DNA from: a virus
Taxonomy: Duplodnaviria; Heunggongvirae; Uroviricota; Caudoviricetes
Length of the DNA stretch: 36,521 nucleotides
IMG/VR virus record: IMGVR_UViG_2778261065_000031
Coordinates: 1 to 36,521 of that record
Reading direction: 5' to 3' (one strand)
The notes beneath the pieces were generated by a model. That model was not told where the DNA came from. It searched no databases and saw nothing but the letters and a program-made list of their open reading frames with translations. Shown here one piece after another: positions 1 through 36,521 of this stretch. The number at the start of each line of letters is the position of its first letter. Positions within the stretch are counted from its first letter, which is position 1. Position numbers and translations under genes: made by a program.

Positions 1-1920
1 TCACCCTGCCTTGGTGTATGTCCAGTTAAATGTTGTTGTTCCCTGGCTTGTGATGGTTACAATCCTTCCTGTCACTGTAAATGATATCAACCCTCCTGAC
101 TTAAGCGGAGTTAAAGTAAGTGTTGTTCCGTCCCACATGGCAAGCTGAAGCGAAGAGAAATTTGTTCCACTGCTTTCTGCCCAAACGCTTATCAGGTACA
201 TCCCTTGGCTATTTGGCAGTTCAAACAACGTAGTTGCTACGTTAGCTGCAACAGCCTGAGTTCCTTTCGCTGTGTACACTGCTGGCAACTGATTACCTGC
301 AGAGCTTCGTGATTCAACATATGAGCCTGAAGTTTGCGTCCCAGTTAATGAGCAGTCAGTAAATACTCCATTCCCTGTGCTGTAAGTTGATATTACAGGA
401 GTCCCACCAGTCGGAGCCTTAAACCGGCATCCCTCAGCAATTATTTTTGCTGTTGAGTCTGTCAGCAATGTGTTTGGGTATCCAGAGCCAGTGTAGGTTA
501 TTGATTCGCTATCAAGGAAGCTATCGGTACTTGATTTTATGTTAACAATGCTTGTGCCTGTTGCAAAGATAAATGCTGCTGCCCCACTCCCCGTTGTTTG
601 CATTGAGTTTCCATGCCCGGCCAATCCTGATATATGGGCAATAGTATCATTAAGTTTTATATACGACGCAGTAATTCCATTTGTATTTTTTATTATATTA
701 GACTCACCATCATACCCTGTAATAGTAAGACACTTACATCCAGAAAAATATAACCCTGAGGAATCAAATGTATATTGCGACCCGTCAACTGTGATCTGGT
801 CTCCTGCACAGTTTATTAGCTGAGGAGACAGGCAATTTACAACATACCATGCCTGTGCTGCATCCAGCACATAACATGTATCCCACTGTATTGTCGTTCC
901 GTTCGCCTTATAGAAACCATGCGCAACTCTCCTCGCCCATACCTGGGTATACTTTGTTAGGTAATTTCCAGAATCATCATATATGGCCCACCATGCACCA
1001 TCAACCTCAACATTTTTAATGTGCATAACGCCTGGTGAAGTAGTTCCTCCATCAATTAGAATGCCAATTTTACCATCATTGCCAGTAGGTGATGTAGGGC
1101 GTCCTCCATCGTAAAAAATATAGACATTTTCAATATTTATTGTATTAAACGCTGCGTGGTAATGGAAACAAGCTATATTTCCTATTACTGCTATGAAAGT
1201 TTCCGGCCTATTTATGTTGCTGTTTGTTTCGCCATTTATTGTGCAGTTTGAATTCATCTCTATCGTTGCATTTACGAAGTAAGTTCCAGATGTCAATAAT
1301 ACATTCCGCCCTGTATTAATTGCGGCCTGTATGCCTGCATAGTCAAGAGACTGAGTTAGTGATGTTACGAATGGATAAACAGCCTGCGCCGCTGATAGTG
1401 TGGAGAATTTCTCGCTGAGTGGATGCAGAGTTCCGTCAGCTGTTGCACCGAAATCCTTGGCTGAAATGAAGTTGGTATTTTTATCATGTTGAGTTAAAGC
1501 TATTGAGCCGATATATGGCTGCTTAACTGCAACTAGTGCGTCACCCATTCCATCTTCTGAGCTTGCTAGCTGCTGCTTGAATTGATCTGGATCGTACTTG
1601 AGTACATTTGGGTGGTAGAACTGTCGTGCATTAAATGCGTCATACACAGCCATCGAGTGACCTTGCACAGTGACGAACTTGGCAATTTGTCCGTTATATA
1701 CCGGATATCCAGCAGCGTTAATGATGATTGGCTGCGATACAGGAACGTGAGAGCCGTCTTCGTTCTCCACATAAACCTGAATCTGGTTTTCAGGATTTAC
1801 CGGGTCAGTGTCAATTTTACCGATATAAATTTTACCATTGGCTACGGCTTTAAAAGAACGCGCCATAGTGAAGAGTTGCGAAGGCATACTCACTACAACA
1901 TTGGCTGTAATGTCTGTCAT
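1..1920 (-). CDS. Tailspike protein (P22 gene 9 homolog): conserved N-terminal head-binding domain plus a distinct receptor-binding domain
   Basis: 639 aa; N-terminus [11 protein letters not shown]...[11 protein letters not shown]...LKYDPDQ matches P22/HK620 tailspike head-binding domain from memory; SD GGAG upstream of ATG at 1920. Confidence 0.9.
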
Positions 1921-2084
1921 TTAATTTGCTCCGGACGTAGCAATGCCGAACAAGATGCAACTTGCCCAGCATTGCACTAATGTCAGTTATGATTTGTTAA
2001 TTATGAGATGAGTCTATGCAAAGAGATCTGTTGAATATTGCGCTCTATATATTTGGTTTTTGCACGTTCCTGGTGTTTGCAAAG

Positions 2085-4082
2085 CTATTCTGACAACGCA
2101 TCAGACTTAGCCCCCTGCGTCATAGCGTTAATTACCTTTTGTGCCTGCTGCATGGCTTTCTCAAACGCTGTTGATCCGCGTGGGGTATTTGCCATTCGTA
2201 GCATTGCATTTCTGAATGGCTCGCTCTCATAGGCGCGAGTAAGAAGTCCGTAGCTTACTGCTGCGCCAGTTGTCGCCGGGTTCATTGCCGTCCCATACCC
2301 AATTATGAACGGGATAGTTTGCTGCCCTGTGGGTGTTGTTACTGCCGCTTTTGCAGCCTGCTGCGTGGATTGCAGGTAGTTTTTTAATCCTTTCAGATAA
2401 GCAGCGTCCTGCCCCTTAAATGTGATGCCAGTCTGGTTTTGCAGGATGTTAAGCTGCCGAAGGAACTGGTCAGGGGATCCGCCAGATTTCTCCATCGCCT
2501 TTCCAATGATGCCATTGCGCATTTGCGCCCTGCCAACACGACCAACTGAGTTATACAGCGTCTTAATTTCCGATTTGTTCTTGCTGAATAGCATGTTGTT
2601 GACAACTTCCGGTGTCAGGTCGCCTTTCATGAGAACATTCTTCAGCCTGGTATTCTTTAGTTTCGCCGCTTCGTCAGCGTAGACGGCATTGGCCTGCTGA
2701 TATTTACGGAGAGTATCATTGCCAAGATTCTGACCAATGGCACCATTGATATCGTCTGTCATCGCCTTGTAAACGCGCTGAATGGCAGCATCGGAACGGT
2801 TTGGTAACACTGGTCGTTCCCCCTTCACGTCCATTCTGAACTGGCTGCGCAGATCGCTTAATTGCTTCAAATCCAGATTTACCGGACCATCAGGACCAGC
2901 ATTGCGAATAAGCTCATCACGATAGGATTGAAGTTTTGAAATCGTCTCGTTATCAGCGACCTTACCAAGCTTCTGCAGGTTAGATATCTCAGTATCAATC
3001 TGCTGAATTGCTCGCACAGGCTGAATGTTTACTCCAGCCATAGCATTCTGAACCTGCTCCAGTCGATTACCGGCAGCACGACGAATTCCTGATGTTTTCG
3101 CTTTAAGGCTGTCAATAACAACCGCTGGATCATACTCACCGAATTTATCAGCAAATCTCTGCACCAACTGGCTTCTCGCTTCCTGTTGCGTTGCTCTCAT
3201 TCCGCTTGTGCCAGCCAGAGGGATATTTTCTGCTGTAGTCTGCGCCATTTTTCCGACGCGGGAAGTAGGTTGTAACAGGTCTGTGGTGTGCAGAGGCACT
3301 CCTTCACGCTCTGCAAACCTGATAGCCTGTTGCGCTTCTGGCGCTATCGCACCACGAACTCCACGATAAGCAGCACCTAATCCACGTCCGGCAGCGTTAA
3401 TAGCTCCGCCAGCCAGAACGCCAACGCCTAAGTCGGTGGCTAGTGCTTCCGCATCATCTTTCACACTGTTTGCAGCAAGTGATCCAACTGCGTTTTCAGC
3501 GAGAAGGCGAGTTGCACCCTGAGCAATTCGACCAGCAAGTGTTGGTGCCTGTGTTGCCGCTCTCTCAACGCCGGCAGGTGTGAGGTAAGGCAATGCTTCA
3601 GCAAATACCCTGCCCTCTGTCGTTTGTGGAGTCAGCGCACCTTGCTGAAGGCCAAAGTCCTGCTCTAATCCATGCGTTGTTACTCGTGGCGCGGGTTGAT
3701 ATGTTCCATCGCCAATGCCGAGTTTACCGCCAGCCCATGCAGCCGCGCTTGTTACAGCATCGGCAACTGATGCAGGTATGTTTGCCACGTTCACGCCAGC
3801 CTGCACCAGTCCGCGACCAGTCTCTTTCACTGCTTCACCAAGATCAGACATAAATCCACTTTGCTGTGGTTGTTGCTGTGCTACTGGTTGCTGTGTCTCC
3901 ACTGGCTGCACAGATGGCAATGGATAGGCTGCATAGAAAGCTTGCTTAGCCTGCTCTGCATTTTCTCCGGCTTGCGGGGCCACGACTTCATTGAAGTATT
4001 GCTCCTGAGCCTGCGCTTTTTGTTCTGGTGCTAACGCCTGATACTGTGGAGAGGCGATAACATCTTTCCATGCTTTAGCCAT
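2085..4082 (-). CDS. Ejection (injection) protein, P22 gp16-like
   Basis: 665 aa, Gln/Ala-rich, last gene of the ejection-protein trio by position; TAATG overlap with upstream gene. Confidence 0.7.
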   Translation of the reverse strand: MAKAWKDVIASPQYQALAPEQKAQAQEQYFNEVVAPQAGENAEQAKQAFYAAYPLPSVQPVETQQPVAQQQPQQSGFMSDLGEAVKETGRGLVQAGVNVANIPASVADAVTSAAAWAGGKLGIGDGTYQPAPRVTTHGLEQDFGLQQGALTPQTTEGRVFAEALPYLTPAGVERAATQAPTLAGRIAQGATRLLAENAVGSLAANSVKDDAEALATDLGVGVLAGGAINAAGRGLGAAYRGVRGAIAPEAQQAIRFAEREGVPLHTTDLLQPTSRVGKMAQTTAENIPLAGTSGMRATQQEARSQLVQRFADKFGEYDPAVVIDSLKAKTSGIRRAAGNRLEQVQNAMAGVNIQPVRAIQQIDTEISNLQKLGKVADNETISKLQSYRDELIRNAGPDGPVNLDLKQLSDLRSQFRMDVKGERPVLPNRSDAAIQRVYKAMTDDINGAIGQNLGNDTLRKYQQANAVYADEAAKLKNTRLKNVLMKGDLTPEVVNNMLFSKNKSEIKTLYNSVGRVGRAQMRNGIIGKAMEKSGGSPDQFLRQLNILQNQTGITFKGQDAAYLKGLKNYLQSTQQAAKAAVTTPTGQQTIPFIIGYGTAMNPATTGAAVSYGLLTRAYESEPFRNAMLRMANTPRGSTAFEKAMQQAQKVINAMTQGAKSDALSE

Positions 4083-5377
4083 TAATCACCCCATAGTGAA
4101 GAAAAGTTACTGCCAGTAGTAGATTGTTGCCTTGGAATATTCTGCACCGGCTCCTGATAATCAAACTGTTTTTTAACAGTGCTCAACTTGCTTTCAAGCT
4201 GATTTCTAATCTTTCCGATAGAGTCACGAAAAGCCTTTTCACTCATTTTGGGGCTTAGGGCACCAACCGCATCGGATAATTTTTTACCCTCAGCATCTGA
4301 AAGAGCGCCCATACCCTTCAGGGACTGCACCATAGGAAGGAATGTTTGAGCTTTAAAGGTGTCGAGCCTTGCTTCAAAGTTAGCCGCATCAGAGCCAGGA
4401 ACTGTCGGAAACGCTGAGCGAATTCCTACTGCTTTTGAAAGGCCGGGGCTTTGCTCTATCTCGTTGAGAGAATCAAGCGCGGTGCTGAACGTATCAACTG
4501 CACCCTGAGCAGCGGCCTGCCTGTCAGCGCGGGCTATGTCAGCCTTTTGCCGAACATCTGCCTGTTTCTGTTTTAGCTCTTCAAGCTTTAACTGATTGCT
4601 TTCTCTGGCTATTTGTCTGTCCAGAGCCTTTTCTTGTAATTCTGCTCTTTGTATTTCGCGGGAAAGAGCAGCATTCTGTGCGCTGATGTTCTGTCCACGT
4701 ATCTGGATGTCCTGACCTCGAGCTGTTAGTGCTTCTCCGGCCTGATTGCTGCGGATTGTCTCTGCCAGTCTGCCTCGGTCAATTTCACGACCAGCCATCT
4801 TGTCCTGAACATTGAAGTAATCAATCGGACCAAGCGCAGCCATCCCAAGGTGATCAACAAACTCACCAAATCCTGAAGGGTTCTGCTGATACATCTGAGC
4901 AACGCTGTTAGGGTCAACACCGACGCGAGTCAGTTCCTTGGCGTTGTTTTGCAGCCATGATTGCATTGCTTCTGGAGACGATGACGCAAGGCGTGCGCCA
5001 GCCGCTAAGGTGCCGATAGAATTACGCTGATCTTCATCAATGAATCCCATGCCTTTACGAACGGATTCAATCTGGTCTGGATATTGAGTAGCCAACTGAC
5101 GCAAAGCACCGCGATCACCAGACGCATAAGCATTAGCGTACGCCTGCTGAAATTCTTTCTGCCGCTGAGCCTGCTTTTCCTGCTGAAACACCCCTGCAAT
5201 ACCTGAAAGACCTTGCAAAGCAGTCAGCCCAACATTGTTAGCGCCTGAACGCTCAATATCATTGTTCTGCCTGATAAGCTGAAGCGTATTGCCGATGTCA
5301 TTTACGCTCGGAGCGTTTGAGTTGACGCCGCCGATACCAGCTAACAATCCGCCATTTGATCCTTGCCAAGTAGCCAT
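4082..5377 (-). CDS. Ejection protein, P22 gp20-like
   Basis: 431 aa; position between gp7-like and gp16-like genes. Confidence 0.7.
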   Translation of the reverse strand: MATWQGSNGGLLAGIGGVNSNAPSVNDIGNTLQLIRQNNDIERSGANNVGLTALQGLSGIAGVFQQEKQAQRQKEFQQAYANAYASGDRGALRQLATQYPDQIESVRKGMGFIDEDQRNSIGTLAAGARLASSSPEAMQSWLQNNAKELTRVGVDPNSVAQMYQQNPSGFGEFVDHLGMAALGPIDYFNVQDKMAGREIDRGRLAETIRSNQAGEALTARGQDIQIRGQNISAQNAALSREIQRAELQEKALDRQIARESNQLKLEELKQKQADVRQKADIARADRQAAAQGAVDTFSTALDSLNEIEQSPGLSKAVGIRSAFPTVPGSDAANFEARLDTFKAQTFLPMVQSLKGMGALSDAEGKKLSDAVGALSPKMSEKAFRDSIGKIRNQLESKLSTVKKQFDYQEPVQNIPRQQSTTGSNFSSLWGD

Positions 5378-5386
5378 GATTACTCC

Positions 5387-6079
5387 TTAAAACAACGAGC
5401 TAAGCAATCCAATACCAGCACCAATGCCAGCGCCCCAAGGTGTTGATGTTCCCAAAAGGCTGGCAAGACCTGCACCGGCAATCGCACCAGACGTGCCACC
5501 GCTAATTGCAGTCTGAAGACTTGATGGTTTATTGGCATTAGCAGCGGCAAGAGCTGCGCTTTGCTGTGCAATGCTGCTCATGTTGTTGGCGTACGTCTGC
5601 CCGGCGTTTGCCTGACCTTGCAGCGCACCAAGCCCAACGTTTGCCAGATTGTTGTAATTGCTCATCTGATTTGATAACCAAGACTGACCGAGTGTCGGCG
5701 CGATCGTAGCCAGTTGATTGCTTGTGGCTGTCGAACCAAGTCCACCCGTCGCCTCCGCAGCAGCAAGACTCTGGTAACGCGCCTGACCTGCAAGGTCTTT
5801 ATACTGCTGAGAGTTGTAATACTGATTAAGTGCCTGCCCCTGACCTTCTAAACTGGAAAGATTCTGCAACTGGTTAACATACTGCTCCGCAAGAGGCGTG
5901 AACGGAGCAAGATTTTTCATGATCGTCTGCCACTGCTGATTTTGCAGGTCTGCGGCATACTTCTGAGCTTCTGCTGCATACTTTGCGCTTTTATCAGAGC
6001 TGCCACCTTTCCCGCCTTTTTCAGGGCAATAAGGTTCCTCGCCGCGCAGTTTTCTGCCCAGCTTAAATGCATATAACAT
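5387..6079 (-). CDS. Ejection protein, P22 gp7-like
   Basis: 230 aa; N-terminus MLYAFKLGRKLRGEEP and Gly/Ala-rich tail resemble P22 gp7 (229 aa). Confidence 0.7.
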   Translation of the reverse strand: MLYAFKLGRKLRGEEPYCPEKGGKGGSSDKSAKYAAEAQKYAADLQNQQWQTIMKNLAPFTPLAEQYVNQLQNLSSLEGQGQALNQYYNSQQYKDLAGQARYQSLAAAEATGGLGSTATSNQLATIAPTLGQSWLSNQMSNYNNLANVGLGALQGQANAGQTYANNMSSIAQQSAALAAANANKPSSLQTAISGGTSGAIAGAGLASLLGTSTPWGAGIGAGIGLLSSLF

Positions 6080-6081
6080 GG

Positions 6082-6537
6082 CTATCTCCCGTGATTCAGG
6101 AAGTCGATTAGTTCTTCGCGTGTTGCGCTGTAAAAAGTCACGTCATCCACGCCTTTGAAGTATTTCTTGATGGTTCCTACACGCTTAAGGCCAATCATTG
6201 CGCAGTACATCTGCCCGTGGCGGAATTTGCGTGCAGCGAACGATGTGACGCACTGAACGGTGGTGTTAGTCAGAATGTATCGCCAGAACGCCAGACCGAT
6301 TTCCTTGCTGAATCCACGAACCTCTGGCAGGTACATGGCGTGGCAATCGAATGTCAGCGGCTGAATCTCCTGATAGTAAACAATGCCGCCGAACTGCCCG
6401 TGCACGCTCACCTCAAAGTAACGGCATTCAGGTTTGTAGTCGTATCCATCGCCGTTGTTGCTCCCGGCGATAATGTCAGGGTGATTTCCGACTGCTTCTA
6501 TCAGGTCGATGTTTCGCGTTGGTTTGAATGTAATCAT
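6082..6537 (-). CDS. P22 gp14-like protein (assigned by position)
   Basis: 151 aa ORF between tail needle and gp7-like gene, as in P22 order 26-14-7. Confidence 0.5.
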   Translation of the reverse strand: MITFKPTRNIDLIEAVGNHPDIIAGSNNGDGYDYKPECRYFEVSVHGQFGGIVYYQEIQPLTFDCHAMYLPEVRGFSKEIGLAFWRYILTNTTVQCVTSFAARKFRHGQMYCAMIGLKRVGTIKKYFKGVDDVTFYSATREELIDFLNHGR

Positions 6538-7238
6538 CAGTCAATCAGCCCATGTAATCTAAGTGCCGTTTCAAGCGCCAGAATACGCTGCCGCGCCTGC
6601 TGCAAACCTGTAGCGAGAGCTGCGACTTCGGATTGTGTGTACGTAGTGCCGACAGTGTATGACTGGTTAGCGTTGAATGAGCCAAGAAGTGGCGTACCTG
6701 TGGCTGCAGTCCATCCGGTATTTCTTGCTCCAACAACCTGAATTCCATCAACTGAATATGATGTTTTTACATCCAGCGGTGACGCAAGAGACTGCGATTT
6801 GGTTACAGTTTTCGATACGTAATCACTCTTAATGTCAGATACATCGCTTTCTACGCCATCCAGTCTTTTGTCAACAGTGACCAGATGCGCCTGAATATCG
6901 ATAACCTCATCCAGCAAGTAATCAACATCGCTGCGCAGTACGACTATCTTCCCTTCGGCGGTTGTTAACCTGACCTCAAGGAGATTTATCGCTTTTGTGT
7001 TTGCGGTGATTCTTGCATCGTGGTCAGCCAGTTCGACATCCTGTTCATCGTTTTTTACTTGGGCATCATAAGCGCCCTGACCAGCCTGATTTGCCTTCCC
7101 GGCAATTGCGCCGACATCAGCCCCCTGATTAATGACATACAGCAGGTAAGACTGGCTGAATATATTGCGTGGCAAAATTGAAGCATCAAGGCGCGTAGCC
7201 TGAACCGCGACAGGATTATTCAGTGATGAATCCGCCAT
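6537..7238 (-). CDS. Tail needle protein (P22 gp26 homolog)
   Basis: 233 aa; [25 protein letters not shown]... and C-terminus [13 protein letters not shown] match P22 gp26 from memory. Confidence 0.9.
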
Positions 7239-8656
7239 TACTCAATCCTTATCTGAGCGCCAGACAGAGTTACAGGTGACTTCGTGATAACGCGCAATTT
7301 GAAGCCGACATTTTTCCTGATGCGCCCTACTCGCTTCCACAAAACGCGTTTGTCGTAAACGAACGGTTCATTCTGCTCAATCATCTGCTCACGTCCGTAA
7401 TTGATGCCGTCAGTGGTTGCAGAGAGGAACAGGCGGTCAGCATACTGCGCAACGCCAGTTGAAGATTCAACTTCAAGGTCGAAAACTCTGGCGTTATCTG
7501 CTTTGAAGAGTGGAGTAAACAGCAGGTGTTCCTGTTGAAGACCATACTGGCTGCTGATGTCGAATTGCAATTTCCCGGTCACGGGTTCCAGTTTATCGCC
7601 GCACGTTATCTGATTGCCTTCGAAAATGAAGTCGATAGCGCGGTACACATCGTCATACAGGCCTGTTTTCAGCACACACCATTGCGGACCATTAGCGCTT
7701 GAAGATGCGTCGTACACAAGTACATGGCGCGGAAGATGGATAATCAGCAACTCATGCGCATCAAATCGCAGAGACTCCATCACGCCATCAGCCAGTTCAT
7801 CAGCAGTGTAGGAGCGGAGGATTTTCTCAATGCTCGCGCTGGCGATTGGTGATACCTGACCGGAGCCGATGATGTATACAGACGGCGCACCCGTTGCCGG
7901 ATTGCTGATGAACGCATAAGAATCAGCGAATGGCGTTTTGCAGTAAGTCCCGGCAATGCCTTTCTGCACCATAAGAGATGGCTGTGCGACATACAAAGCA
8001 GCACCAACGGTGGTTGCACCCGTCAGGGAGAAATATTCAATCGTTGATGAACCAAAGCATACGATGAAGTCTCGCCATGTTCCGATGCCGATGATGCCGT
8101 CAGGCTGCGATTCTGCGCGATATTGTGCGCTGTAGCGGTCAGGGTGCGATTCGTCTTCAGGGTCAGTGATAAACCATGAATCAGTTCCGTCTTTTGACCA
8201 CGCATAACGCCCGCGCAAGCGCGTAATGTCGCGAACCGAACCTAACTCATACTGCGTGAATCCGCTGTCTGTAGGCCAGTTTGAGACGGTTTTAACCGTG
8301 CCATCATATCGATACTCAACCAGTTGACCATTAACGCCTACCGCCTGTGATGTCCGACCATGCGCCATTGATACGCGACCACTTCCGGCAACATCACCGA
8401 CTTCGCTTTCGCCTTTGTAGAGCTTCCCACCACACACGCGATAAACAGCACTCTGCGCCATGTTGTATTCGACGCCGCGCGATATACCGTTCACATCAGA
8501 ACGTTTGGCAATGCCCGGGAATGAGCGAAGATATCCGCTGCTGTTGAGGATTTCTTTGGGTGTAGCCAACATATTCACTGGCAGATAGTCGATATAATCG
8601 GCGTTTCGAAAGTCTTTGCCGACACCTTTCATAAGCGGAAGTTGCTGAATCGGCAT
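7238..8656 (-). CDS. Tail accessory/plug protein (P22 gp10 homolog)
   Basis: 472 aa, same length as P22 gp10; position between gp4 and gp26. Confidence 0.8.
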
Positions 8657-9133
8657 TATTCGCTCCCGTTATCGCAAGGTTCCTTCCGGTGGAAGTAATT
8701 CCAACCGTTCCACTTCGCCAACTGGTTACCGCTACCAACAGGCATACGGTTTGGATAACCGGACTTACATTTAGCGGCCTTTGCCCTATCCATTGCAGAC
8801 AGTTTGACGAGTCGCTCTTTCCCGTATCTGGCAGTGGTTATAAGTTTTGCAGACGCTTCCAGCGCATAATCTGGAGCAATGCGGCAGGCAAGGTTGAAAA
8901 TGACGGCATTGATAGCGTTATTTGATAAACCGTGCTCATCGCCCGGATCCGGAGCAACATCTGCATCAGCAAAAATGTAGCCAACGTTGACACCAGGTGA
9001 CGCATCACCGCCAAGCCATTCAGCCATCATCATTTCAAGGTCGTTGACGCCGTCTTCCATAGACTGCGGTTCGACATCGGTTAACGTGGCATTTGATGCC
9101 ACACCGAGCTTACGTAATGCCGCAAGAACTAAA

Positions 9134-9156
<23 letters not shown>
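8656..9156 (-). CDS. Head-to-tail adaptor (P22 gp4 homolog); track ORF trimmed to internal ATG
   Basis: Track ORF 8656..9291 has a spurious (NQ)n N-terminal extension; from [21 protein letters not shown] it matches P22 gp4 (about 166 aa); ATG at 9156. Confidence 0.85.
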
Positions 9157-9430
<274 letters not shown>

Positions 9431-9442
9431 GCTTGTCTCCAT

Positions 9443-9466
9443 ATAAAAAAGGGAGCCGAAGCTCCC
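9443..9466 (-). terminator. Intrinsic terminator immediately downstream of the coat gene
   Basis: Minus-strand RNA GGGAGC-UUCG-GCUCCC followed by UUUUUU; 9 nt after coat stop. Confidence 0.6.
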
Positions 9467-9474
9467 TCTGGTTA

Positions 9475-10770
9475 TCACGCGGTCTGGTTAGGCAGACCAA
9501 TACCAATTGCCTCTGGTCGTACAGCACATGCTGAATACCACACAGCAATACGGCACTTACCAGACAGAGTGTTGATATCACCCTGCGTTGCGAAGATGCC
9601 GTTAACACCAATACCAGGAATGCTGAAGGAAGACGTTTTCATGCCAGCAAACAGTTCATGGGTTACCGGGATCGGCTGAGACAGCAGACGGATTGAGTCA
9701 TCAGCCCAGAACACGTTAGCGGTGGTTGTTGCCACGTTCAGAACGTTTACCGGAGTGGAATCAGCAAGAGAGGTGTTTACGTTAGCGTAAGCCTTCTCTT
9801 CTTTTGTCAGTGAAGAGTCATCAAGCGCAATCGGCTTCGGCGTGATTTCGATGTGAGTACCATCGATCACACGGGTGATTGAGAAAGTAGCATCATCAGT
9901 CAGCACGTTCTTCGCCATCTGAGACAGGAATTTCACACCAGTGAAGCTGATTTTGTCGCCGCGCTTAAACCCGGTGGTGGAGGATACGGTCACCGTTGCA
10001 ACACGGTTGTCGACGTTCTCTTTGTTACCATCGGTATCAAGAGTGTATGCCTGCGGCTTAAACTTCTGCGCACCAGAAACAGTTACACCAGTAGCGGTTG
10101 ACTTGGTAACTGCCGGAAGTTTCGGTGAGCGAAGAATTTCATCAAAGCCAGCAATCTGACGCTGAATAGTACCGTTGCGATACGCTTCTTCAGGAACGCG
10201 CCCGAAGATGTCACCATCTACCAGGTTGCGGCCTGCTTTGCGGTAATCGTCAGGGTTCAGGAAGTAACTGATGCCCATATCGCGGTTTAGCTCACGGGAG
10301 AACATCAGGCGCTCTGCATCAGACACAAAATCCCAGCCAGACAGGCCAGTAGATGGACCAATTGCTCGGGTATCGTGAACAACAAGTGAGCCCATTTCAG
10401 TTGCCTGTTTGGCAATTGCTGACTCAATGTTATTCGCCAGTTTTTTAGCGGATGCCTGGATGCGGCGACGGTAAGAACGCTCATCACGCAGGTCATCTGC
10501 ACGAAGCTCGAAGAAATCGTTATCCGGATCGCCCATGTTGCATTTCACGGAGAGTTCCAGAATCCCAGTTGCGTTGCCAGTTAAATCCCAGCCAGTCTGG
10601 GTTGGCGCTTCCTGCTCAACAGGCATCCACACGGTGTTGCTTGAACGCTGCATGGATTCTGCCGGAGGGGTGTATTTTGTCACTTTGGACGCCATTGGCG
10701 TCAGGTTCTGGACGGTTTCGATGATTTCATCCAGAGCATACGTGACCAGTTGACCTTCATTTAATGCCAT
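9475..10770 (-). CDS. Major capsid (coat) protein (P22 gp5 homolog)
   Basis: 431 aa; MALNEGQ...VVHDTRAIG...FATQGDI...TLSGKCRIA matches P22 coat protein from memory. Confidence 0.95.
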
Positions 10771-11681: not shown

Positions 11682-11694
11682 GATTAACTCTCTC

Positions 11695-15826: not shown

Positions 15827-15861
15827 ATTCATCTCACTTAGTTGTTATTTCAGGTTGAGCA

Positions 15862-22180: not shown

Positions 22181-22197
22181 CGATACTTATCCTCAGT

Positions 22198-29668: not shown

Positions 29669-30134
29669 AATAGCCAATGAATACGCAAAGCTGATGGATT
29701 CAGATTTAGAGCCAGAGATGATTGCTGACACAATAGAAGGAATGGAAGGAGAATTTACCGATAAAATAGAGCAACTTCTTGCCATTATTAAAAATGAATC
29801 TGGTTATGCTGAACGCCTCAAGGACGAGGCAAAGTCACTAAATGAGAGAGCCGCAGTAATTCAAAATAAGATTGACAGCATTATGGCGTATATAGCGTCA
29901 TCGCTTGAAATGGTTGGCAAGAAAAAGATTCGAGCAGGTATTCACCAGGTAACAATTCGCAAACCGTCAGAAATTGTAGAAATAATCGACTCAAGCGCCC
30001 TTCCTCCTGAATACGTTGAGTTTGAAACGACAATTAAAGCCGACAAACTGGCAATCAAACACCAGCTAAAAGCAGGAATAAATATCCCCGGCGCTCAACT
30101 CAAAGTTGGGAAACCTTCACTTCTTATCAAATAA
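29652..30134 (+). CDS. Gp157-family protein (RecT-associated); GTG start
   Basis: GGAGG SD 6 nt upstream of GTG at 29652; family assignment by recall. Confidence 0.55.
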   Translation: MSKLYEIANEYAKLMDSDLEPEMIADTIEGMEGEFTDKIEQLLAIIKNESGYAERLKDEAKSLNERAAVIQNKIDSIMAYIASSLEMVGKKKIRAGIHQVTIRKPSEIVEIIDSSALPPEYVEFETTIKADKLAIKHQLKAGINIPGAQLKVGKPSLLIK

Positions 30135-30145
30135 CGGTATCGCCT

Positions 30146-30460
30146 ATGAAAAAGACTCCATGGGAGAAATGGGAAGTCGATTTCTTGCGCGAAGTGGCGG
30201 CGACAATGCCAGTTGAAGTTATCGCTGAAAAACTGGAAAGGACTGAAAAAGCAGTTATGGCGAAAGCAACAAGGATTGGCGCTGACATTGTTAGCCGACT
30301 TCGTGGAAGACGCTGGACAAGAGCCGAAGTATCACTTTTCGGTAAGTTCTCCGCAGAAGAAATAGCAATTGCAACCTGCCGCTCAATTTATTCAGTAAGA
30401 GCTATGCGATACAAGCTAAAAAAACTCAATGAAGAAAGAGCAGGCATACGAATAAATTAA
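30146..30460 (+). CDS. Hypothetical basic protein (104 aa)
   Basis: ORF in co-directional early-left array; no family recognised. Confidence 0.5.
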   Translation: MKKTPWEKWEVDFLREVAATMPVEVIAEKLERTEKAVMAKATRIGADIVSRLRGRRWTRAEVSLFGKFSAEEIAIATCRSIYSVRAMRYKLKKLNEERAGIRIN

Positions 30461-30476
30461 CATGGAGTAATTAACA

Positions 30477-30758
30477 ATGAAGCTAAACATCGACCTTGGA
30501 AAATACGTTATTACCGGAACCAAACACGACCTGATTCTTAGCGAAAGAGGAATTATCAAAGAAGGTGAGAATGCAGGGAAAGAAACACTAAGCCGTATCG
30601 GTTATTACAGCAAGTTTGAGCATCTGGTTAAAGAGTTATGCAACCGTGAAATTCTGTTATCTCAAGCGCGGACGCTACAGGATATTCAGCAGCATATCGA
30701 GACTTTAGGTGTGTCACTTAGCATGGCCGTTGACCAGTTCGTGGAGAGTAAATCATGA
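30477..30758 (+). CDS. Hypothetical protein (93 aa)
   Basis: ORF; ATGA overlap with the next small ORF. Confidence 0.5.
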
Positions 30759-30922
30759 GAGGACTTGCATACAATCCCGGCATTCTTCCGGCAGAAATGA
30801 TTATTAGCCAACGCGTAAAGCCAATGCCATCGAGAGAGGAATTGCTTAAGAGAAATTCTTTTCCATCAGTGAATCAAAACAAATATCTGAATGCGATGTG
30901 GCGCAAAGGAGGCAACCAGTGA
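30755..30922 (+). CDS. Small hypothetical protein (55 aa) ending RKGGNQ
   Basis: Below track cutoff; translationally coupled at both ends; C-terminus shared with the 31560 gene. Confidence 0.35.
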
Positions 30923-31563
30923 GTAACCGTTTTTACATGATGTGCTTGCGTGAAACTGTGGGTAATAACGCCTCATTCCATTGCCATAACGGCAATGGTT
31001 ACAGTTCTGATATCGATCGAGCACATGTTTACACGCAGGAAGAAGCCCAAAAAGCCTGGAATTGTGGTCGAGATATCGATCAGCCTGTTTGCGCTGATAG
31101 CGTGGATGCAATGGCTGTGTGGCACGTTGATTGCCAGTACATCCCTACAGAAAGCCTGATTGAGTCAGATTGCACTGCGTATGTGGCCTACAAAAAAGGT
31201 TGCTGGAATGGCAACGATGTTTACTGGCTTCAACACGGTGGATTGCCAACCGATGACTTCAGTAAAGCAACCATCTTTAGCGTCGCCAACAAAAACGAAC
31301 CAGGAATAGTTTGGTTGCCATTTTCCATTGCCGGTGCAGCAAAGCGGCGGACGTTCAATATCAATAATTTTAACCGCAGAACAATGGTTCAGGGCGCAGG
31401 TTTGATCATGCCTGACTGGTTGAAAAAGCAAAACAGAAGAAAGAAGTCACGAAGCGGGAAGGTGCGCTGGAATTGTCCGCATTGCGGAAAAATCACCTGG
31501 CAGTACAGCCCATATGATTTTGAAGGCTGTAGTGATTACAACTGTGAAGGATGGCGAGAATGA
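30919..31563 (+). CDS. Cysteine-rich protein with C-terminal zinc-ribbon-like motif (GTG start)
   Basis: AAGGAGG SD then GTG at 30919; [11 protein letters not shown]...CSDYNCEGW. Confidence 0.5.
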
Positions 31564-32252
31564 CAATTGACTATCAGGTACTGCGTGAGGCGGCAGAAAA
31601 GGCAACACCAGACGAATGGGTCGCATTTATTTCGACGGATACTGGTACTTATGCGGTGCACACGCCCGGTGATGAACGATGTGAAGACGTTATCAAATGG
31701 ACAGGCTTTGATGGACAGAAAAATGCAGAGAACAACGCTCGTCATGTTGCCGCGTTCAACCCAAAGGTTGCACTGGAGCTGCTTGGTGAAATTAAGTGCT
31801 TGGAGGACACAAATATTGATGCCACGTGCCGAATTTCAGAGCTTGAGACTAATCTCGCTGCGCTGGTGGCAGAGAACGCTGGGCTGAAACACGCAATGGC
31901 CGTAACTCTTGAGCATGTGTCGGTCACGGATGCAGGGCAGGCCGGAGTTGCTGCAATGATTATCAACGATGCCCTGCACCACAGCGAAACTCCAGCTACC
32001 GATGCTTTTCTAGCTGAAGTGAAGACTGAAGCACGCAAGGAAGGCGCTTATTTTGTGGCGAACAGAATGCTGGCTGCCTGGGAAGCTGGTTTTATTGATG
32101 ATACTGCGAAGAACGCCGCGGATATTGCCCGGATGATTCTTACCTCTACTGAGTTTATGGCTAATGCGCCGGAAGGCGATTTTGACCGCTCATTCTCTGA
32201 TGGCGTTCTCGAAGATATCGCCGCCCAGCTTCGCAAAGGAGGCAACCAGTGA
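31560..32252 (+). CDS. Ea22-like family protein (paralog 1), tentative
   Basis: N-terminal [17 protein letters not shown] and FNPKVALELLGEIK shared with the next gene; ATGA overlap upstream. Confidence 0.45.
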   Translation: MTIDYQVLREAAEKATPDEWVAFISTDTGTYAVHTPGDERCEDVIKWTGFDGQKNAENNARHVAAFNPKVALELLGEIKCLEDTNIDATCRISELETNLAALVAENAGLKHAMAVTLEHVSVTDAGQAGVAAMIINDALHHSETPATDAFLAEVKTEARKEGAYFVANRMLAAWEAGFIDDTAKNAADIARMILTSTEFMANAPEGDFDRSFSDGVLEDIAAQLRKGGNQ

Positions 32253-32956
32253 GCAAGATTGATTATCAAAAGCTTCGTAAAATCGCTGAAAAAACAAAAA
32301 TTGCTGGTGAAGCACCTGTAATGCCTTTCGATCAGCGAATTAATGCGCTTAACGATTTTATGAAGCACTTTTCGCCAGATATCGCGCTGGCATTGTTGGA
32401 TGAACGGGAAAGAAACCAGCAATACATCAAATCACGCGACCAGGAGAACGAGGATATTGCGCTAACGGTAGGGAAGCTGAGAGTTGAGCTTGAGGAAGTA
32501 AAACAACACGCTGAAGAATTATCCGAAACCAAGGCTGTTCGTAACCAATGGCGGCCAGATATTTGCCCAATAACCGGACGTGCATTTTTCATGTGGATTG
32601 AGCATCCAACATTGGGAAATGTGCCGACATATGGTGGCCCATTAGATAGTTACACCATTCCAACAAAGGACGGTGACGGTGAGTTTTCATGTGAGCGTTA
32701 CGATCATGATTTTGGCGGTTGGGTAGAAAGCGAATGTCTTGGGTTATATCTGATTGATGATAGAGAACAATGCAGGGTCTACGAACTGGAGGAACGCGTT
32801 AAGGAACTGGATGCTCGGGAAATATCGCTCCCGGAACGTAGCAGCATGCTTCATCGAACAGATTTTAACGAGGATTACCACACGGTAATGGCATACAAAG
32901 TTTCTGAAGTCATCGCTGCAATCCGCGCTGCTGGTATTCGCATCAAAGGAGATTGA
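32249..32956 (+). CDS. Ea22-like family protein (paralog 2), tentative; GTG start
   Basis: N-terminal MSKIDYQKLRKIAEK and FSPDIALALLDERE; preceded by the same 22-bp junction as the 30919 gene. Confidence 0.45.
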   Translation: MSKIDYQKLRKIAEKTKIAGEAPVMPFDQRINALNDFMKHFSPDIALALLDERERNQQYIKSRDQENEDIALTVGKLRVELEEVKQHAEELSETKAVRNQWRPDICPITGRAFFMWIEHPTLGNVPTYGGPLDSYTIPTKDGDGEFSCERYDHDFGGWVESECLGLYLIDDREQCRVYELEERVKELDAREISLPERSSMLHRTDFNEDYHTVMAYKVSEVIAAIRAAGIRIKGD

Positions 32957-32957
32957 G

Positions 32958-33473
32958 ATGGCGTTAACACACCGCGAACTCTGTCAGATTGCGTACAAGT
33001 TCCTTAAGCGCAACGGGTTCAAGGTTTGCTTTCATGACCGCTTTATAGCTGTAACCAGTACCGGAGAACAGCCAGATGCTATGGGATTCAGAAATTCAGC
33101 ATCATGCCTGATAGAGGCGAAGTGTTCTCGTGCTGACTTGTTGGCAGATAGAAAAAAGCGTTTTCGTAAAAATCCGTCTCTTGGAATGGGCGACTGGCGA
33201 TTCTTTATTAGTGAGCCGGGAATTATTTCAATTGAGGATTTACCACCTGGCTGGGGATTACTTCACGTTGTTAACGGAAGAGTACGGAAAGTACATGGGT
33301 GGCCCAGGGGTAATTGCTGTTGGGGTAATCCTGACGATAAGCCATTTACTGGAAATAAGCAGGTTGAATGCGATTACATGTTATCTGCATTAAGGCGCAT
33401 GGAGTTGAGAGGGCACCTTAATGAAATATATGACGGTGTAATTGTTAATAAGAAAGAAGGAAACGCGGCATGA
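32958..33473 (+). CDS. Putative PD-(D/E)xK-fold nuclease (171 aa)
   Basis: Candidate motif GEQPDAMGF...CLIEAKCS (PD ... EAK); 4-nt overlap with the DUF551 gene. Confidence 0.45.
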   Translation: MALTHRELCQIAYKFLKRNGFKVCFHDRFIAVTSTGEQPDAMGFRNSASCLIEAKCSRADLLADRKKRFRKNPSLGMGDWRFFISEPGIISIEDLPPGWGLLHVVNGRVRKVHGWPRGNCCWGNPDDKPFTGNKQVECDYMLSALRRMELRGHLNEIYDGVIVNKKEGNAA

Positions 33474-34189
33474 TCACTATTACCAAAGAGCGACTACTGA
33501 CAATCAAGCAGTGGCGCGAAACATACGGACCTGGTAGCAACGTTGTACTGCCAGCAGAAGAAGCGGAAGAACTGGCACGAATTGCTCTGGCATCACTGGA
33601 AGCAGAACCAGTTGCTTATATTTTCAAACATCCGGCCGGGAAATTATTCTGGGCTTTAACGGATGAAAGCAATAAAGAGCAAGCGGACGTTATTCCTGTT
33701 TATGCTGCCGCGCCTGCGTCGGTTGTGCCGGATGATGCATCAGGGTCGCTTGCTTATGCTTACAAAGAGCTTACGCCTGAGATTATGCGCGGTCATATCG
33801 CTGTATTCGAGCGATATGGAATAGCCCCAAACGATAGCATTACCACAATTCAGGCACTGCGAATCGCGCTGGATGGCATAGAGCGGAGCGACGCCATGCT
33901 TCATGGTGCCGAACCCGTAAGCCAAACTTACAAGTTGAACGAGCTATCTGGCAACTATCCGGCAACTCCGGATAGTTGGATAAGCTGTAGTGAGCGAATG
34001 CCGGAAAAGAACAAGAACGTGCTTATTTCGGTGAATTTCGACAGCTCTCTGGTTGAACCGCTAATATGCTCCGCACGCTATACCGGAAGCACATTCCGGC
34101 GAGGAGAAGCAACGATTAAGCCGGGTAATGGTATTGAGCAGGCAACTCACTGGATGCCGCTACCGGAACCGCCGCAGGAGGCGAAATGA
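33470..34189 (+). CDS. DUF551 domain protein
   Basis: C-terminal WISCSERMPEKNKNVLIS...THWMPLPEPP typical of DUF551 by recall. Confidence 0.6.
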   Translation: MITITKERLLTIKQWRETYGPGSNVVLPAEEAEELARIALASLEAEPVAYIFKHPAGKLFWALTDESNKEQADVIPVYAAAPASVVPDDASGSLAYAYKELTPEIMRGHIAVFERYGIAPNDSITTIQALRIALDGIERSDAMLHGAEPVSQTYKLNELSGNYPATPDSWISCSERMPEKNKNVLISVNFDSSLVEPLICSARYTGSTFRRGEATIKPGNGIEQATHWMPLPEPPQEAK

Positions 34190-34446
34190 TGGATGTTCAA
34201 GAGAAGGTTTTGCAGGTGATGCGTTCCCGTGCAGCCCTGCAAGAGAAAGTTCTCGGCGGGGAATATCCATTCAGGATGGCAACCTGGAGTCTGCGGTTGG
34301 CAATGGAGAAGGAATTTCCTGATGAAGAATGGCGTTCGGCAGATTTGCGCAAAACTCTTATGGAGATGGCTAAAGACGGAACAGTATCCAAAGATACCTA
34401 TGCCAGCCGGATTGGTCAGGCGGTATGGAGACTGGAGGTGAGGTAA
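34186..34446 (+). CDS. Hypothetical protein (86 aa)
   Basis: ORF; TAATG overlap with the downstream gene. Confidence 0.45.
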   Translation: MMDVQEKVLQVMRSRAALQEKVLGGEYPFRMATWSLRLAMEKEFPDEEWRSADLRKTLMEMAKDGTVSKDTYASRIGQAVWRLEVR

Positions 34447-34730
34447 TGGCTAACCTGCAACTTGCCGTAAAAGGTGAATACTTCGATGCCATGATTCGTG
34501 GAGAGAAAACGGAAGAGTATCGCTTGTGTAATGACTACTGGAATAAGCGAATTATGTTCAGGGAGTATGACCGCCTGATTATCACAAAGGGATATCCGAA
34601 GCGCGACGATTCCAGCCGTAGAATTGATGTTCCGTATGACGGATATGAAATCAAGACAATCACACATCCACACTTCGGTGATAAACCGGTAAAGGTGTTC
34701 GCGATAAAGGTGAATATCGGCAATGAATAA
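34446..34730 (+). CDS. ASCH-like (DUF3850-type) small protein
   Basis: From MANLQLAVKGEYFDAMIRGEKTEEYR; pattern fits ASCH/PUA-like phage proteins by recall; GGAGGTGAGG SD. Confidence 0.5.
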   Translation: MANLQLAVKGEYFDAMIRGEKTEEYRLCNDYWNKRIMFREYDRLIITKGYPKRDDSSRRIDVPYDGYEIKTITHPHFGDKPVKVFAIKVNIGNE

Positions 34731-34802
34731 CAATCCTCGAACTCGCGGGGATTTCTTTTATCTGAACTCACTACGGCGGGTTTTGTTTTATGGAGACAAG
34801 AA

Positions 34803-35147
34803 ATGTCAGATTTGGCTATGAAGGTTTTGAAATGGCAATCGACTGGCGATGTTGGCATCAGTAGCGCAACTCTTGCCTCAATCGCATGTGGACTGAAAAA
34901 GAATATCTATGGTCATCACTTCGGCGCTCCCCATGACGCAGCCGATTTCAGACGATGCGTTGCACTTGTTGAGCAGATTCCAGAAATCAGAGATTCATTC
35001 AACAAGGTTGCAAAGCGCGTTCCGGCATTCAAAGGAATCCTCAACGAATGGGATTCCCTCGTTGCTCTGTTGAAGTCTGAAATGAAGATACACGGAAACA
35101 AAGCACCAGAGACTTACAGAAGAATCAGCGAGCTACGCAAGGACTAA
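34803..35147 (+). CDS. Hypothetical protein (114 aa)
   Basis: ORF upstream of xis; no family recognised. Confidence 0.45.
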   Translation: MSDLAMKVLKWQSTGDVGISSATLASIACGLKKNIYGHHFGAPHDAADFRRCVALVEQIPEIRDSFNKVAKRVPAFKGILNEWDSLVALLKSEMKIHGNKAPETYRRISELRKD

Positions 35148-35251
35148 CCATGAAATAACACCGCCGGCCTGTTCATTGCTCAATGATATCCAGACCTACC
35201 ATCGCCGCATCAATGCGGCTTTTTCTTGCGTGTAATTGCGGAGACTTTGCG

Positions 35252-35470
35252 ATGTACTTAACACTTCAGGAGTGGAACGCACGCCAGCGACGTCCAAGAA
35301 GTCTTGAAACAGTTCGTCGATGGGTGCGCGAATGCAGGATATTCCCTCCTCCGGTTAAGGATGGAAGAGAGTATCTGTTCCACGAATCAGCGGTAAAGGT
35401 TGACTTAAATCGACCAGTAACAGGTAGCCTTTTGAAGAGGATCAGAAATGGGAAGAAGGCGAAGTCATGA
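35252..35470 (+). CDS. xis: Excisionase Xis; track ORF trimmed to internal ATG
   Basis: From MYLTLQEWNARQRRPRSLETVRRWVRECRIFPPPVKDGREYLF essentially identical to lambda Xis (72 aa). Confidence 0.92.
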   Translation: MYLTLQEWNARQRRPRSLETVRRWVRECRIFPPPVKDGREYLFHESAVKVDLNRPVTGSLLKRIRNGKKAKS

Positions 35471-36521
35471 GCGCCGGGATTTACCCCCTAACCTTTATAT
35501 AAGAAACAATGGATATTACTGCTACAGGGACCCAAGGACGGGTAAAGAGTTCGGATTAGGCAGAGACAGAAGGATAGCAGTTTCAGAGGCTATTCAGGCC
35601 AATATTGAGTTGCTATCCGAGAACAGGCGTGAGTCACTGATAGACAGAATTAAAGGCGCTGACGTAATCACTCTTCATGTGTGGCTTGACCGATATGAAA
35701 CAATCCTCAGCGAGAGGGGTGTCAGGCCGAAAACTCTACTCGACTACGCCAGCAAAATCAGGGCAATCCGAAGAAAATTGCCGGACAAACCGCTCGCTGA
35801 CATATCAACGAAAGAGGTGGCAACAATGCTAAACACCTACGTAGCAGAAGGTAAAGCGGCCTCCGCAAAATTAATCAGATCAACCCTTGTTGACGTTTTT
35901 CGTGAAGCAATAGCCGAGGGGCATGTGGCAACGAATCCGGTAACAGCAACCCGTACAGCAAAGTCAGAAGTAAGGCGCTCAAGGCTGACAGCTAATGAGT
36001 ATGTCGAGATTTACCATGCAGCCGAACCTCTCCCTATCTGGCTAAGGCTGGCGATGGATTTGGCCGTCGTTACAGGGCAGAGAGTCGGCGATTTGTGCAG
36101 AATGAAATGGTCAGACATAAACGACAACCATCTTCACATTGAACAGAGTAAAACAGGGGCTAAACTCGCCATTCCGCTAACGCTAACGATTGACGCGCTC
36201 AATATCTCATTGGCTGATACACTACAGAAATGCAGGGAGGCCAGCAGCAGTGAAACAATAATCGCATCAAAGCATCACGATCCGCTTTCCCCGAAAACAG
36301 TATCGAAGTATTTTACAAAGGCGAGAAATGCATCAGGACTCTCATTTGATGGAGACCCGCCAACATTCCATGAACTGCGTAGCCTGTCGGCGAGGCTATA
36401 CCGGAACCAGATTGGCGATAAGTTTGCTCAACGTCTTCTCGGGCATAAATCAGATTCAATGGCGGCGCGGTATAGGGACAGCCGTGGACGGGAATGGGAC
36501 AAAATTGAAATCGACAAATGA
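35448..36521 (+). CDS. int: Tyrosine integrase (lambda Int family)
   Basis: 357 aa; MGRRRSHERRDLPPNLYIRNNGYYCYRDPRTGKEFGLGRDRRIA and C-terminal HELRSLSARLY...LLGHKSD match lambda Int; 23-nt overlap with xis. Confidence 0.97.
   Translation: MGRRRSHERRDLPPNLYIRNNGYYCYRDPRTGKEFGLGRDRRIAVSEAIQANIELLSENRRESLIDRIKGADVITLHVWLDRYETILSERGVRPKTLLDYASKIRAIRRKLPDKPLADISTKEVATMLNTYVAEGKAASAKLIRSTLVDVFREAIAEGHVATNPVTATRTAKSEVRRSRLTANEYVEIYHAAEPLPIWLRLAMDLAVVTGQRVGDLCRMKWSDINDNHLHIEQSKTGAKLAIPLTLTIDALNISLADTLQKCREASSSETIIASKHHDPLSPKTVSKYFTKARNASGLSFDGDPPTFHELRSLSARLYRNQIGDKFAQRLLGHKSDSMAARYRDSRGREWDKIEIDK

Follow-up and report, generated by a model that had tools for sequence, protein, structure and literature searches.

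Two questions are raised by the DNA of IMG/VR virus record IMGVR_UViG_2778261065_000031 (36,521 nucleotides (nt), the whole of which we call the window): whether it is, as an earlier note drawn from the letters alone proposed, a mosaic of P22-type virion and replication genes with lambda-identical regulatory, lysis and integration genes, and where in a bacterial chromosome it resides, the integration site and att repeats lying beyond its ends. We are highly confident that the window is the body of one integrated P22-like (Lederbergvirus-type) lambdoid temperate prophage in an Escherichia chromosome, apparently intact and mosaic. The claim of a mosaic is borne out, whilst the list of donors holds in part: Q, S, R, Ral, Xis and the C-terminal domain of cI are lambda-like as proposed, but int, most of Rz, and the donors named for the replication and virion genes had to be reassigned. 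In its modules the element combines known parts in a new way without being a new kind of element, and the patchwork is that of ordinary homologous and illegitimate recombination in the shared lambdoid gene pool. What follows draws on sequence identities, domain content, gene order, the presence of motifs and chromosomal position, and every activity named is deduced from the modules.

The open reading frames (ORFs) of the window form the standard lambdoid prophage map, reverse-complemented, in two divergent blocks. The minus-strand block (1-25630) carries the tailspike, ejection, head-completion, coat, scaffold, portal, terminase, lysis, Q, nin, P, O, cII and cro genes, and the plus-strand block (25706-36521) carries cI, N, ral, cIII, kil, the recombination genes, the 'ea' accessory genes, xis and int. 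The genes follow the lambdoid order int-xis-(ea/recombination)-N-cI-cro-cII-O-P-nin-Q-lysis-virion, accompanied by N/nut and Q/qut antitermination. P22-like affiliation is indicated by the virion genes, since the minus strand, read from 15832 to 1, has all 13 of the 13 homologues in the order known from P22, and Pfam recognises P22-family portal, coat and small terminase proteins and the P22 head-binding domain on the tailspike. P22 itself aligns to 48% of bases 1-25000 at ~83% identity, and the nearest relatives, IME10 and vB_EcoP-611R6 (ON470589), are filed under Lederbergvirus; a genus criterion in the style of the International Committee on Taxonomy of Viruses is ~70% nucleotide similarity over the whole genome. 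The window ends where the earlier note placed its ends, at the tailspike stop codon (positions 1-3, minus-strand ORF 1-1920) and at the last base of the int ORF (35448-36521, plus strand). Neither an Rfam family at gathering thresholds nor a tRNA (ARAGORN) was found in the window, which thus differs from Sf6 with its tRNA cluster downstream of Q.

The virion, lysis, replication and integration ORFs all have the full length of their functional homologues, with no insertion sequence (IS) element or frameshift seen among them, and the gene set is complete, with one copy per function. Because all essential genes have full-length reading frames the element looks intact, and it is this evidence that bears on the possibility of a defective (cryptic) prophage, one that yields no phage and is kept for genes expressed in the lysogen. 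A related prophage in E. coli MFDS1019527 does have several frameshifted virion genes, but with these frames uninterrupted in the present element we consider it unlikely to be of that kind.

The prophage lies at the HK022 attB between torS and torT. Extension of the contig, which the earlier note had advised, was achieved through contigs found by exact-protein look-ups; the att junctions are outside the window, on contigs 100% or 99.995% identical to it. Contig L018 (GCA_024169175.1) is 100% identical to 18757-36521 and then runs into attL and torS: the int stop is followed by 73 base pairs (bp) of the attP P' arm, the core heptamer TTCACCT and torS, the core ending 80 bp after the int stop. 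At the other end, contigs L007 and L031 (GCA_032515225.1) match 1-25360 with one mismatch in 21.5 kb (99.995%) before entering an acyltransferase gene, attR and torT. Here the tailspike is followed by a gene for a 374-amino-acid (aa) Acyl_transf_3 (O-acetylase-type) protein (L007 11920-13044, overlapping the tailspike stop by one base), the attP P arm, the core heptamer as AGGTGAA, torT, torR and torCAD. The attP arms of HK022 are thus split at the core, with 95.7% identity in the P' arm and 88.7% in the P arm, and from core to core the prophage measures ~37,988 bp (~38.0 kb). Carey et al. (PMC6814406) locate the HK022 attB in the intergenic region of torS and torT, give 73 bp as the distance between int stop and junction, and find lambdoid prophages with an HK022-like integrase there in ~5% of complete E. 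coli genomes.

The integration genes agree with this position. Xis is nearly that of lambda (71 of 72 residues), as had been stated, and is wholly that of HK022 (72 of 72), but the lambda-identical int of the earlier note is not what is found, since Int matches lambda at 263 of 356 residues (73.9%) and HK022 at 346 of 357 (96.9%). The junction core TTCACCT, too, stands at torS/torT and not at lambda's site. The integration module is thus that of HK022 and not that of lambda.

The same flanking contigs bear on whether the mosaic arose in assembly, through reads of a P22-like and an HK022-like prophage being joined via shared nin, Q or lysis sequence. Lambdoid prophages do share long near-identical stretches, an E. 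coli genome contains a median of 2 and up to 13 places that match the window, and the end of a related contig, ABNOJF010000025.1, is placed by its length and locus range at about window position 33,938, within the repeated accessory region. However, two independent assemblies tile the window at 100% and 99.995%, overlap by 6.6 kb (18757-25360, the cro/cI-distal region) of essentially identical sequence and each run to a proper host junction, which disfavours a chimeric assembly as the source of the mosaic; moreover, the gene set is non-redundant, and the host flanks, torS on one side and torT on the other, together make up one attB. We regard such a chimera as very improbable.

In order to map the mosaic, lambda (NC_001416), P22 (AF217253), HK620 (AF335538), HK022 (NC_002166), IME10 (NC_019501) and Sf6 (NC_005344) were aligned to the window by BLASTN and TBLASTN, together with protein alignments; the BLAST comparisons and identity plot envisaged in the earlier note were thereby run and the module junctions mapped. 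The six references jointly cover 72.7% of the window at ≥88% identity (101-nt local identity), and on the same measure the best donor changes dozens of times along it. Junctions appear even inside genes, namely in TerL, in Rz and at the cI hinge. Most of the window, and most of the gaps that were searched again (those other than 16398-16708, 21410-21998 and 27531-27790), have a match of ≥90% somewhere, so that the novelty lies in how known parts are combined; with E-values of 0 or near 0 for all matches, chance can be set aside. The pattern agrees with what is known of P22-like phages, in which early regions are highly mosaic, lambda-like Q genes are common, virion clusters are conserved and the ant-moron region is variable (PMC2629481).

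Uniform identity to one known phage, which the earlier note had named as the finding contrary to its claim, was looked for and not seen, and the mosaic reading stands on that account. The proposal that the window is a slightly diverged copy of a single described phage (IME10, HK620, Sf6, P22 or lambda), with no mosaic at all, draws what strength it has from IME10, the best single phage, which covers 74% of bases 1-25000 at 95.9% identity, and from the E. coli W prophage, which covers 84% of the same part at 96.3%; for 18000-36521 the best phage is HK022, with 49%. Yet no record in the phage collection covers ≥80% of either searched part (1-25000 or 18000-36521), no complete E. coli genome (n=5,426) has ≥80% of 25000-36521 in one place, and no single collinear match of ≥80% over both searched parts was found in the phage collection or in the 5,426 complete E. 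coli genomes. IME10 moreover differs in integrase, recombination genes, repressor and tailspike, so that a copy of one phage seems highly implausible.

The lambda-like segments were examined individually. Near-identity to lambda, which the earlier note had stated, is confirmed for Q (206 of 207 residues, 99.5%), S (106 of 107, 99.1%), R (156 of 158, 98.7%), Ral (65 of 66) and the cI C-terminal domain (~132 of the last 135, the QAG cleavage-site context included). It does not extend to Rz, which is 61.8% identical overall with only the first 31 residues the same. At the nucleotide level the lambda-like segments are 93-97% identical to lambda and resemble HK022, IME10 and Sf6 at least as closely; they are therefore modules of a shared lambdoid pool and no evidence of descent from lambda. 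Although lambda/P22 hybrids exist in laboratories and several proteins are 98.5-99.5% identical to lambda, a laboratory hybrid or contaminating cloning vector can practically be dismissed, because the lambda-like segments are not 100% identical and are as close or closer to other phages, Int is of HK022 type, and the identical sequence is chromosomally embedded in several independent draft assemblies and sequencing runs.

Some points do weigh against our reading of an intact, integrated Escherichia prophage with the functions named here. The flanks come from two different assemblies, linked through their overlap and not by one contig read from end to end, and the host, Escherichia, is deduced from gene context and database matches. 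O has no Pfam match at E ≤ 1e-5, and its role for that reason rests on near-identity to the annotated O genes of HK022 and HK620 and on the iterons. The putative operators of the GTACACATCGTAC type are candidates, being pattern matches only. Finally, the prophage may carry an inactivating point mutation, and its capacity for induction and particle production is a prediction.

Features of the prophage by position in the window, with strand and the evidence for each assignment (aa, amino acids).
Feature	Position	Strand	Evidence
Tailspike, P22 gp9 homologue, 639 aa	1-1920	-	PF09008 1.5e-64; phrog_8649 1042 bits
Ejection proteins gp16, gp20, gp7 (Sf6 type)	2085-4082, 4082-5377, 5387-6079	-	aa and nt identity to Sf6
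gp14, gp26 needle, gp10, gp4 (head completion and tail)	6082-6537, 6537-7238, 7238-8656, 8656-9156	-	IME10 identity
Coat gp5, scaffold gp8, portal gp1	9475-10770, 10770-11681, 11695-13860	-	PF11651 P22_CoatProtein 5.6e-166; PF16510 P22_portal 5.8e-162
TerL gp2	13861-15360	-	Terminase_6N/6C
TerS gp3	15338-15832	-	GP3_package 3.6e-33
P22 pac 22-bp sequence, exact, within the TerS gene	15538-15559	-	1 match, 0 mismatches
Lysis cassette: Rz 16710-17147; embedded Rz1 16763-16948; R endolysin 17144-17620; S holin (dual start) 17604-17927	16710-17927	-	
Late antiterminator Q 18361-18984; lambda-type pR' promoter and qut ~18261-18360	18261-18984	-	PF03589 1.3e-57
nin region: NinH, RusA, YbcO/DUF1364, Roi-like antirepressor 19815-20537, NinF, NinE, Dam methyltransferase 20876-21403, NinB 21400-21846, two small ORFs	18981-22404	-	
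Replication: DnaB-family helicase P 22480-23916/23931; initiator O 23906-24805	22480-24805	-	DnaB 3.5e-31, DnaB_C 3e-60
cII 24977-25273; nutR boxB 25360-25371; cro 25415-25630	24977-25630	-	cro frame; HTH_3 on identical contig L018
Hybrid cI repressor (start 25706 or 25742)	25706-26401	+	HTH_3 8.1e-11; Peptidase_S24 1e-28
pL/OL, nutL and N: operator-like GTACACATCGTAC 26541-26553; boxA 26603-26611; boxB 26636-26647; N 26747-27019	26520-27019	+	
ral 27148-27348; 149-aa gene 27407-27856; cIII 28096-28230; kil 28215-28367	27148-28367	+	
Recombination module: 102-aa ORF; RecT 28757-29668; Gp157/Mu-Gam-like 29652-30134	28452-30134	+	PF03837 RecT 4.9e-32; PF05565 3.2e-36
'ea' region: DUF5405, DUF2737, two Ead/Ea22-like genes 31560-32252 and 32249-32956, ORF 32958-33473, DUF551 gene 33470-34189, small ORFs	30146-35147	+	Pfam, PHROG
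HK022-type integration: Xis 35252-35470; Int 35448-36521	35252-36521	+	Arm-DNA-bind_1, Phage_integrase and Exc domains

The statement that the structural genes follow P22 in order and sequence is right for order (3-2-1-8-5-4-10-26-14-7-20-16-9) and only loosely so for sequence (~79% nt identity over 9437-15859). On these comparisons most virion genes are nearest to IME10 and Sf6 (~95% nt) and not to P22 (~79% nt), except for TerS and the start of TerL. IME10 is 95.6% identical at the nucleotide level over 4841-16205 and 96-100% in the virion proteins, a module of TerL, portal, scaffold, coat, gp4, gp10, gp26 and gp14 that the window has in common with IME10 and the E. coli W prophage. Coat, scaffold and portal are 98-100% identical in aa to IME10 and 73%, 86% and 77% to P22, whereas against HK620 and Sf6 identity falls to 28% for scaffold and 33% for portal, with no match for coat, so that the procapsid genes are of the P22 subtype and not of the Sf6/HK620 subtype. 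gp14, gp26, gp10 and gp4 are 96-99% identical in aa to IME10 and, in the same order, 91%, 62%, 92% and 58% identical to P22, whilst gp14, gp26 and gp10 are also 93-99% identical to HK620; the Pfam families P22_Tail-4, Phage_stabilise and DUF2824 were found for the head-completion and tail genes on the window-identical contig. The ejection proteins gp16, gp20 and gp7 match Sf6 gp13, gp12 and gp11 at 98%, 98% and 100% aa identity (the gp7 figure over 73% of its length) and P22 at 35%, 47% and 76%, with 95.4% nt identity to Sf6 over 1579-6537.

The terminase genes contain the part that is really P22-like. TerS is 100% and TerL 93% identical in aa to P22, and in 200-nt windows P22 identity is 68-78% up to ~14,400 and 92-100% from 14,400 to 15,860, a stretch which comprises the first third of TerL and the whole of TerS; this jump places a recombination junction inside TerL at ~14,400. 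The P22 pac 22-mer recurs without mismatch within the TerS gene and occurred 0 times in 100 shuffles, and gene 3 of P22 has the same 22-mer at the equivalent location, 23479. This 22-mer is reported to be the pac site of P22 (Wu et al. 2002). Together, the identity jump, the unchanged TerS and the exact 22-mer imply that the TerS/pac recognition unit would have been exchanged recently between E. coli and Salmonella P22-like phages.

The tailspike joins an N-terminal head-binding domain (aa 1-113), 89% identical in aa to HK620 and 75% to P22, to a divergent receptor-binding domain (aa ~160-639, window 1-1443) that is 99.8% identical in aa to that of vB_EcoP-611R6, the next best match being at ~40%. 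The matches at ~40% are tailspikes or lateral tail fibres of E. coli phages, for example JeanPiccard and SU57. A sequence search of the PDB matched the tailspike only to about residue 254 (head-binding domain and neck), the bulk of the receptor-binding domain having no match there. Only 164 bp (1921-2084) separate gene 16 from the tailspike, and sieA and the mnt/arc/ant genes (immI, the 'ant moron') are absent from this interval, as in Sf6 but unlike P22, HK620 and vB_EcoP-611R6.

Within the lysis cassette a further junction is seen in Rz, residues 1-31 of which are lambda-identical and the remainder of Sf6/P22 type; the whole protein is 90% identical to P22 and 97-98% to HK022 and Sf6. The embedded Rz1 is one aa removed from Sf6 Rz1 and unlike that of lambda, and because it is of Sf6 type the interacting C-terminal parts of Rz and Rz1 come from the same source. 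A 91-aa ORF (16399-16674) between Rz and a DUF2560 gene, at a usual position for late-operon morons, matches phrog_34701, of unknown function, and none of lambda, P22, HK620, HK022, IME10 and Sf6 has a counterpart. The Q region is 96.7% identical in nt to lambda 43875-44609, and its pR'/qut is conserved by eye (-35 TTGACT, -10 and the AACGAT pause element). The window is 97.5% identical in nt to HK620 over 18226-20894, a stretch that begins at qut and extends past Q to NinE. Gene calls and Pfam families for the nin region were taken from the window-identical contig L018, and include PF05869 Dam (7.6e-65, 20876-21403) and PF05772 NinB (1.3e-48). The Dam-type N6-adenine methyltransferase of this region is common to IME10 and Sf6.

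The replication genes are not of P22 type as the earlier note held. P is 100% identical in aa to HK620 and O 98-99% to HK620 and HK022, against global identities of 32.7% to P22 gp12 and 23.7% to P22 gp18, and there is no P22 nucleotide match within 20,891-24,797 (P and nearly all of O); the P22-like feature that remains is that the helicase encoded is of the DnaB family and not a lambda P-type loader. Origin iterons inside O, a 35-nt direct repeat at 24318-24352 and 24384-24418, lie at the position of the annotated rep_origin of HK620. cII, 95% identical in aa to HK022, completes this part.

The immunity region (cro, operators, cI N-terminus, OL and N) has no match in the six references and is 98.5% identical to vB_EcoP-683R2 and Dewey and 93.5% identical to Nil2 and several Shiga toxin (Stx) phages; it is therefore of a known type and would be heteroimmune to lambda. 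Imm-lambda is characterised by lambda's Cro, OR/OL operators and cI N-terminal domain, and there is no lambda nucleotide match to 25302-25990, whilst cI 25991-26395 is 93.6% identical in nt to lambda 37233-37637. The N-terminal ~85 residues of cI, with the helix-turn-helix, are unrelated to lambda, the hinge and C-terminal domain are lambda-like, and the change from one to the other comes near residue 102 of lambda cI, shortly before the Ala-Gly cleavage site. N is recognised as PF25694 N_peptide (4.7e-31), a motif search shows boxA/boxB motifs in both nutL and nutR, the boxB of nutR matching that of nutL, and the half-site pattern of GTACACATCGTAC also occurs in OR at 25660-25672. Lambda_CIII and Lambda_Kil were called on the identical contig L018, and the 149-aa protein between ral and cIII matches phrog_3054, of unknown function.

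The recombination module has no match in the six reference phages; it is 96.9% identical in nt to vB_EcoP-611R6 and is annotated in Stx phages. Its RecT and Gp157/Mu-Gam-like genes stand in place of lambda's Exo/Bet/Gam and P22's Erf/Abc. In the accessory region Stx2c phages align to 85% of 31500-34500 with an nt identity of 97.3%, and the tandem Ead/Ea22-like genes (PF13935, 2.6e-24 and 1e-17) are followed by the DUF551 gene. The 171-aa ORF at 32958-33473 matches phrog_9263 (8e-123, function unknown); it is not a called gene in L018, and contig L020 has only an 87-aa gene called there. PADLOC matched no defence system among 10 unassigned accessory ORFs.

Set against the individual phages, the window is close to each in some modules and different in others. 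With IME10 and the E. coli W prophage it has in common, besides the virion module, S, R, Rz, Q and the Dam/NinE region, whilst IME10 differs in its IntS/CPS-53-type integrase, its Erf and SSB recombination genes, its P22 c2-like repressor, its other tailspike receptor-binding domain, and in O (only 66% identical) and TerS (82%). Sf6 likewise has no ant/immI moron separating the tailspike from gene 16 and resembles the window in its ejection proteins, Rz, Rz1, ral and DnaB-type helicase, but has the other procapsid subtype, an Sf6-type terminase, a 434-like immunity region, a Q of phage 21 type, an integrase for argW and another tailspike specificity. HK022 agrees in Int, Xis, attP arms, attB, cII, O and P (99%) and from Q through nin (95.8% nt), and is nevertheless an HK97-like siphovirus with a long tail, whose head and tail genes are unrelated and whose repressor and recombination genes differ; it uses Nun rather than N. 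HK620 is also 96.1% identical in nt over P, O and the start of cII (22198-24969), and differs in its Sf6-type procapsid and terminase, its immunity region and its integrase at argW; its tailspike is O18A1-specific.

P22 provides the virion gene order, the procapsid subtype, TerS with its pac 22-mer, the start of TerL at 92-100% nt identity, Q at 96% and Rz at 90%, and is distant in coat, portal and ejection proteins (35-76% in the last); it has sieA, immI (mnt-arc-ant), gtrABC, a thrW integrase, c2 immunity, Erf/Abc and gp18/gp12 replication. Lambda matches in overall regulatory architecture and in Q with pR'/qut, S, R, Ral, Xis and the cI C-terminal domain, and differs in the type of O and P, Cro, the cI N-terminal domain, operators, Int (only 74%) and att site; the window is without lambda's head and tail genes, Exo/Bet/Gam and Rex. 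vB_EcoP-611R6 agrees with the window in its tailspike (97.1% nt), in the kind of O-acetylase gene that comes after it and in the RecT/Gp157 genes; it differs in that its procapsid and terminase are of Sf6/HK620 type, its Q of phage 21 type and its integrase of argW type, and in that it has an ant moron.

From these modules a working phage can be proposed. HK022-type Int and Xis would integrate and excise the prophage at the HK022 attB, and the hybrid cI, with a Stx/Nil2-type operator-binding domain and a lambda-type cleavage and oligomerisation domain carrying the Ala-Gly autocleavage site, would keep it silent. Upon SOS induction N would act at nutL and nutR, and the HK022/HK620-type O would bind the iterons in its own gene and work with the phage DnaB-family helicase. 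The lambda-type Q would then switch on the late operon at a lambda-type pR'/qut, lambda-type S and R with Sf6-type Rz and Rz1 would lyse the cell, and the P22-identical TerS would recognise the P22 pac for headful packaging into a capsid of P22 subtype. Host entry would be set by the ejection proteins of Sf6 type together with the tailspike and its rare receptor-binding domain.

For a phage specialist the mosaicism is unsurprising, being the textbook pattern for P22-like and lambdoid phages, and the prophage is another example of free recombination among lambdoid modules, with intragenic junctions in TerL, Rz and cI. We advise that it be annotated as a P22-like (Lederbergvirus-type) prophage with an HK022-type integrase at torS-torT and not as a lambda/P22 hybrid. 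The TerS/pac unit is common, nearly unchanged, to this prophage and Salmonella P22.

The pair formed by the tailspike and the O-acetylase-type gene occurs in three P22-like backbones, at torS-torT in the present prophage, at argW in vB_EcoP-611R6 and beside ybhB/bioA in E. coli MFDS1019527, the last locus presumably being the lambda attB position. Tentatively, and with less than even confidence, we suggest that the pair might travel as a cassette for host range and serotype conversion, and that lysogeny might both change the O-antigen and rewire torS/TMAO (trimethylamine N-oxide) control via the HK022-type attL. The int-torS junction (L018 17766-17860, attL) is arranged in the way that, according to PMC6814406, provides torS with a promoter from the prophage and does away with torCAD expression under aerobic conditions. 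The prophage junction at this site was shown to change torS transcription and torCAD regulation, and is reported to abolish the aerobic bet-hedging of torCAD (PMC6814406). Because its int-torS junction has the reported arrangement, this P22-like prophage may alter TMAO respiration of its host as HK022 does. The adjacent acyltransferase probably modifies the O-antigen, and since altered torS expression is also reported for lysogens with a prophage at this attB, the phenotype of the lysogen may differ from that of its prophage-free relatives.

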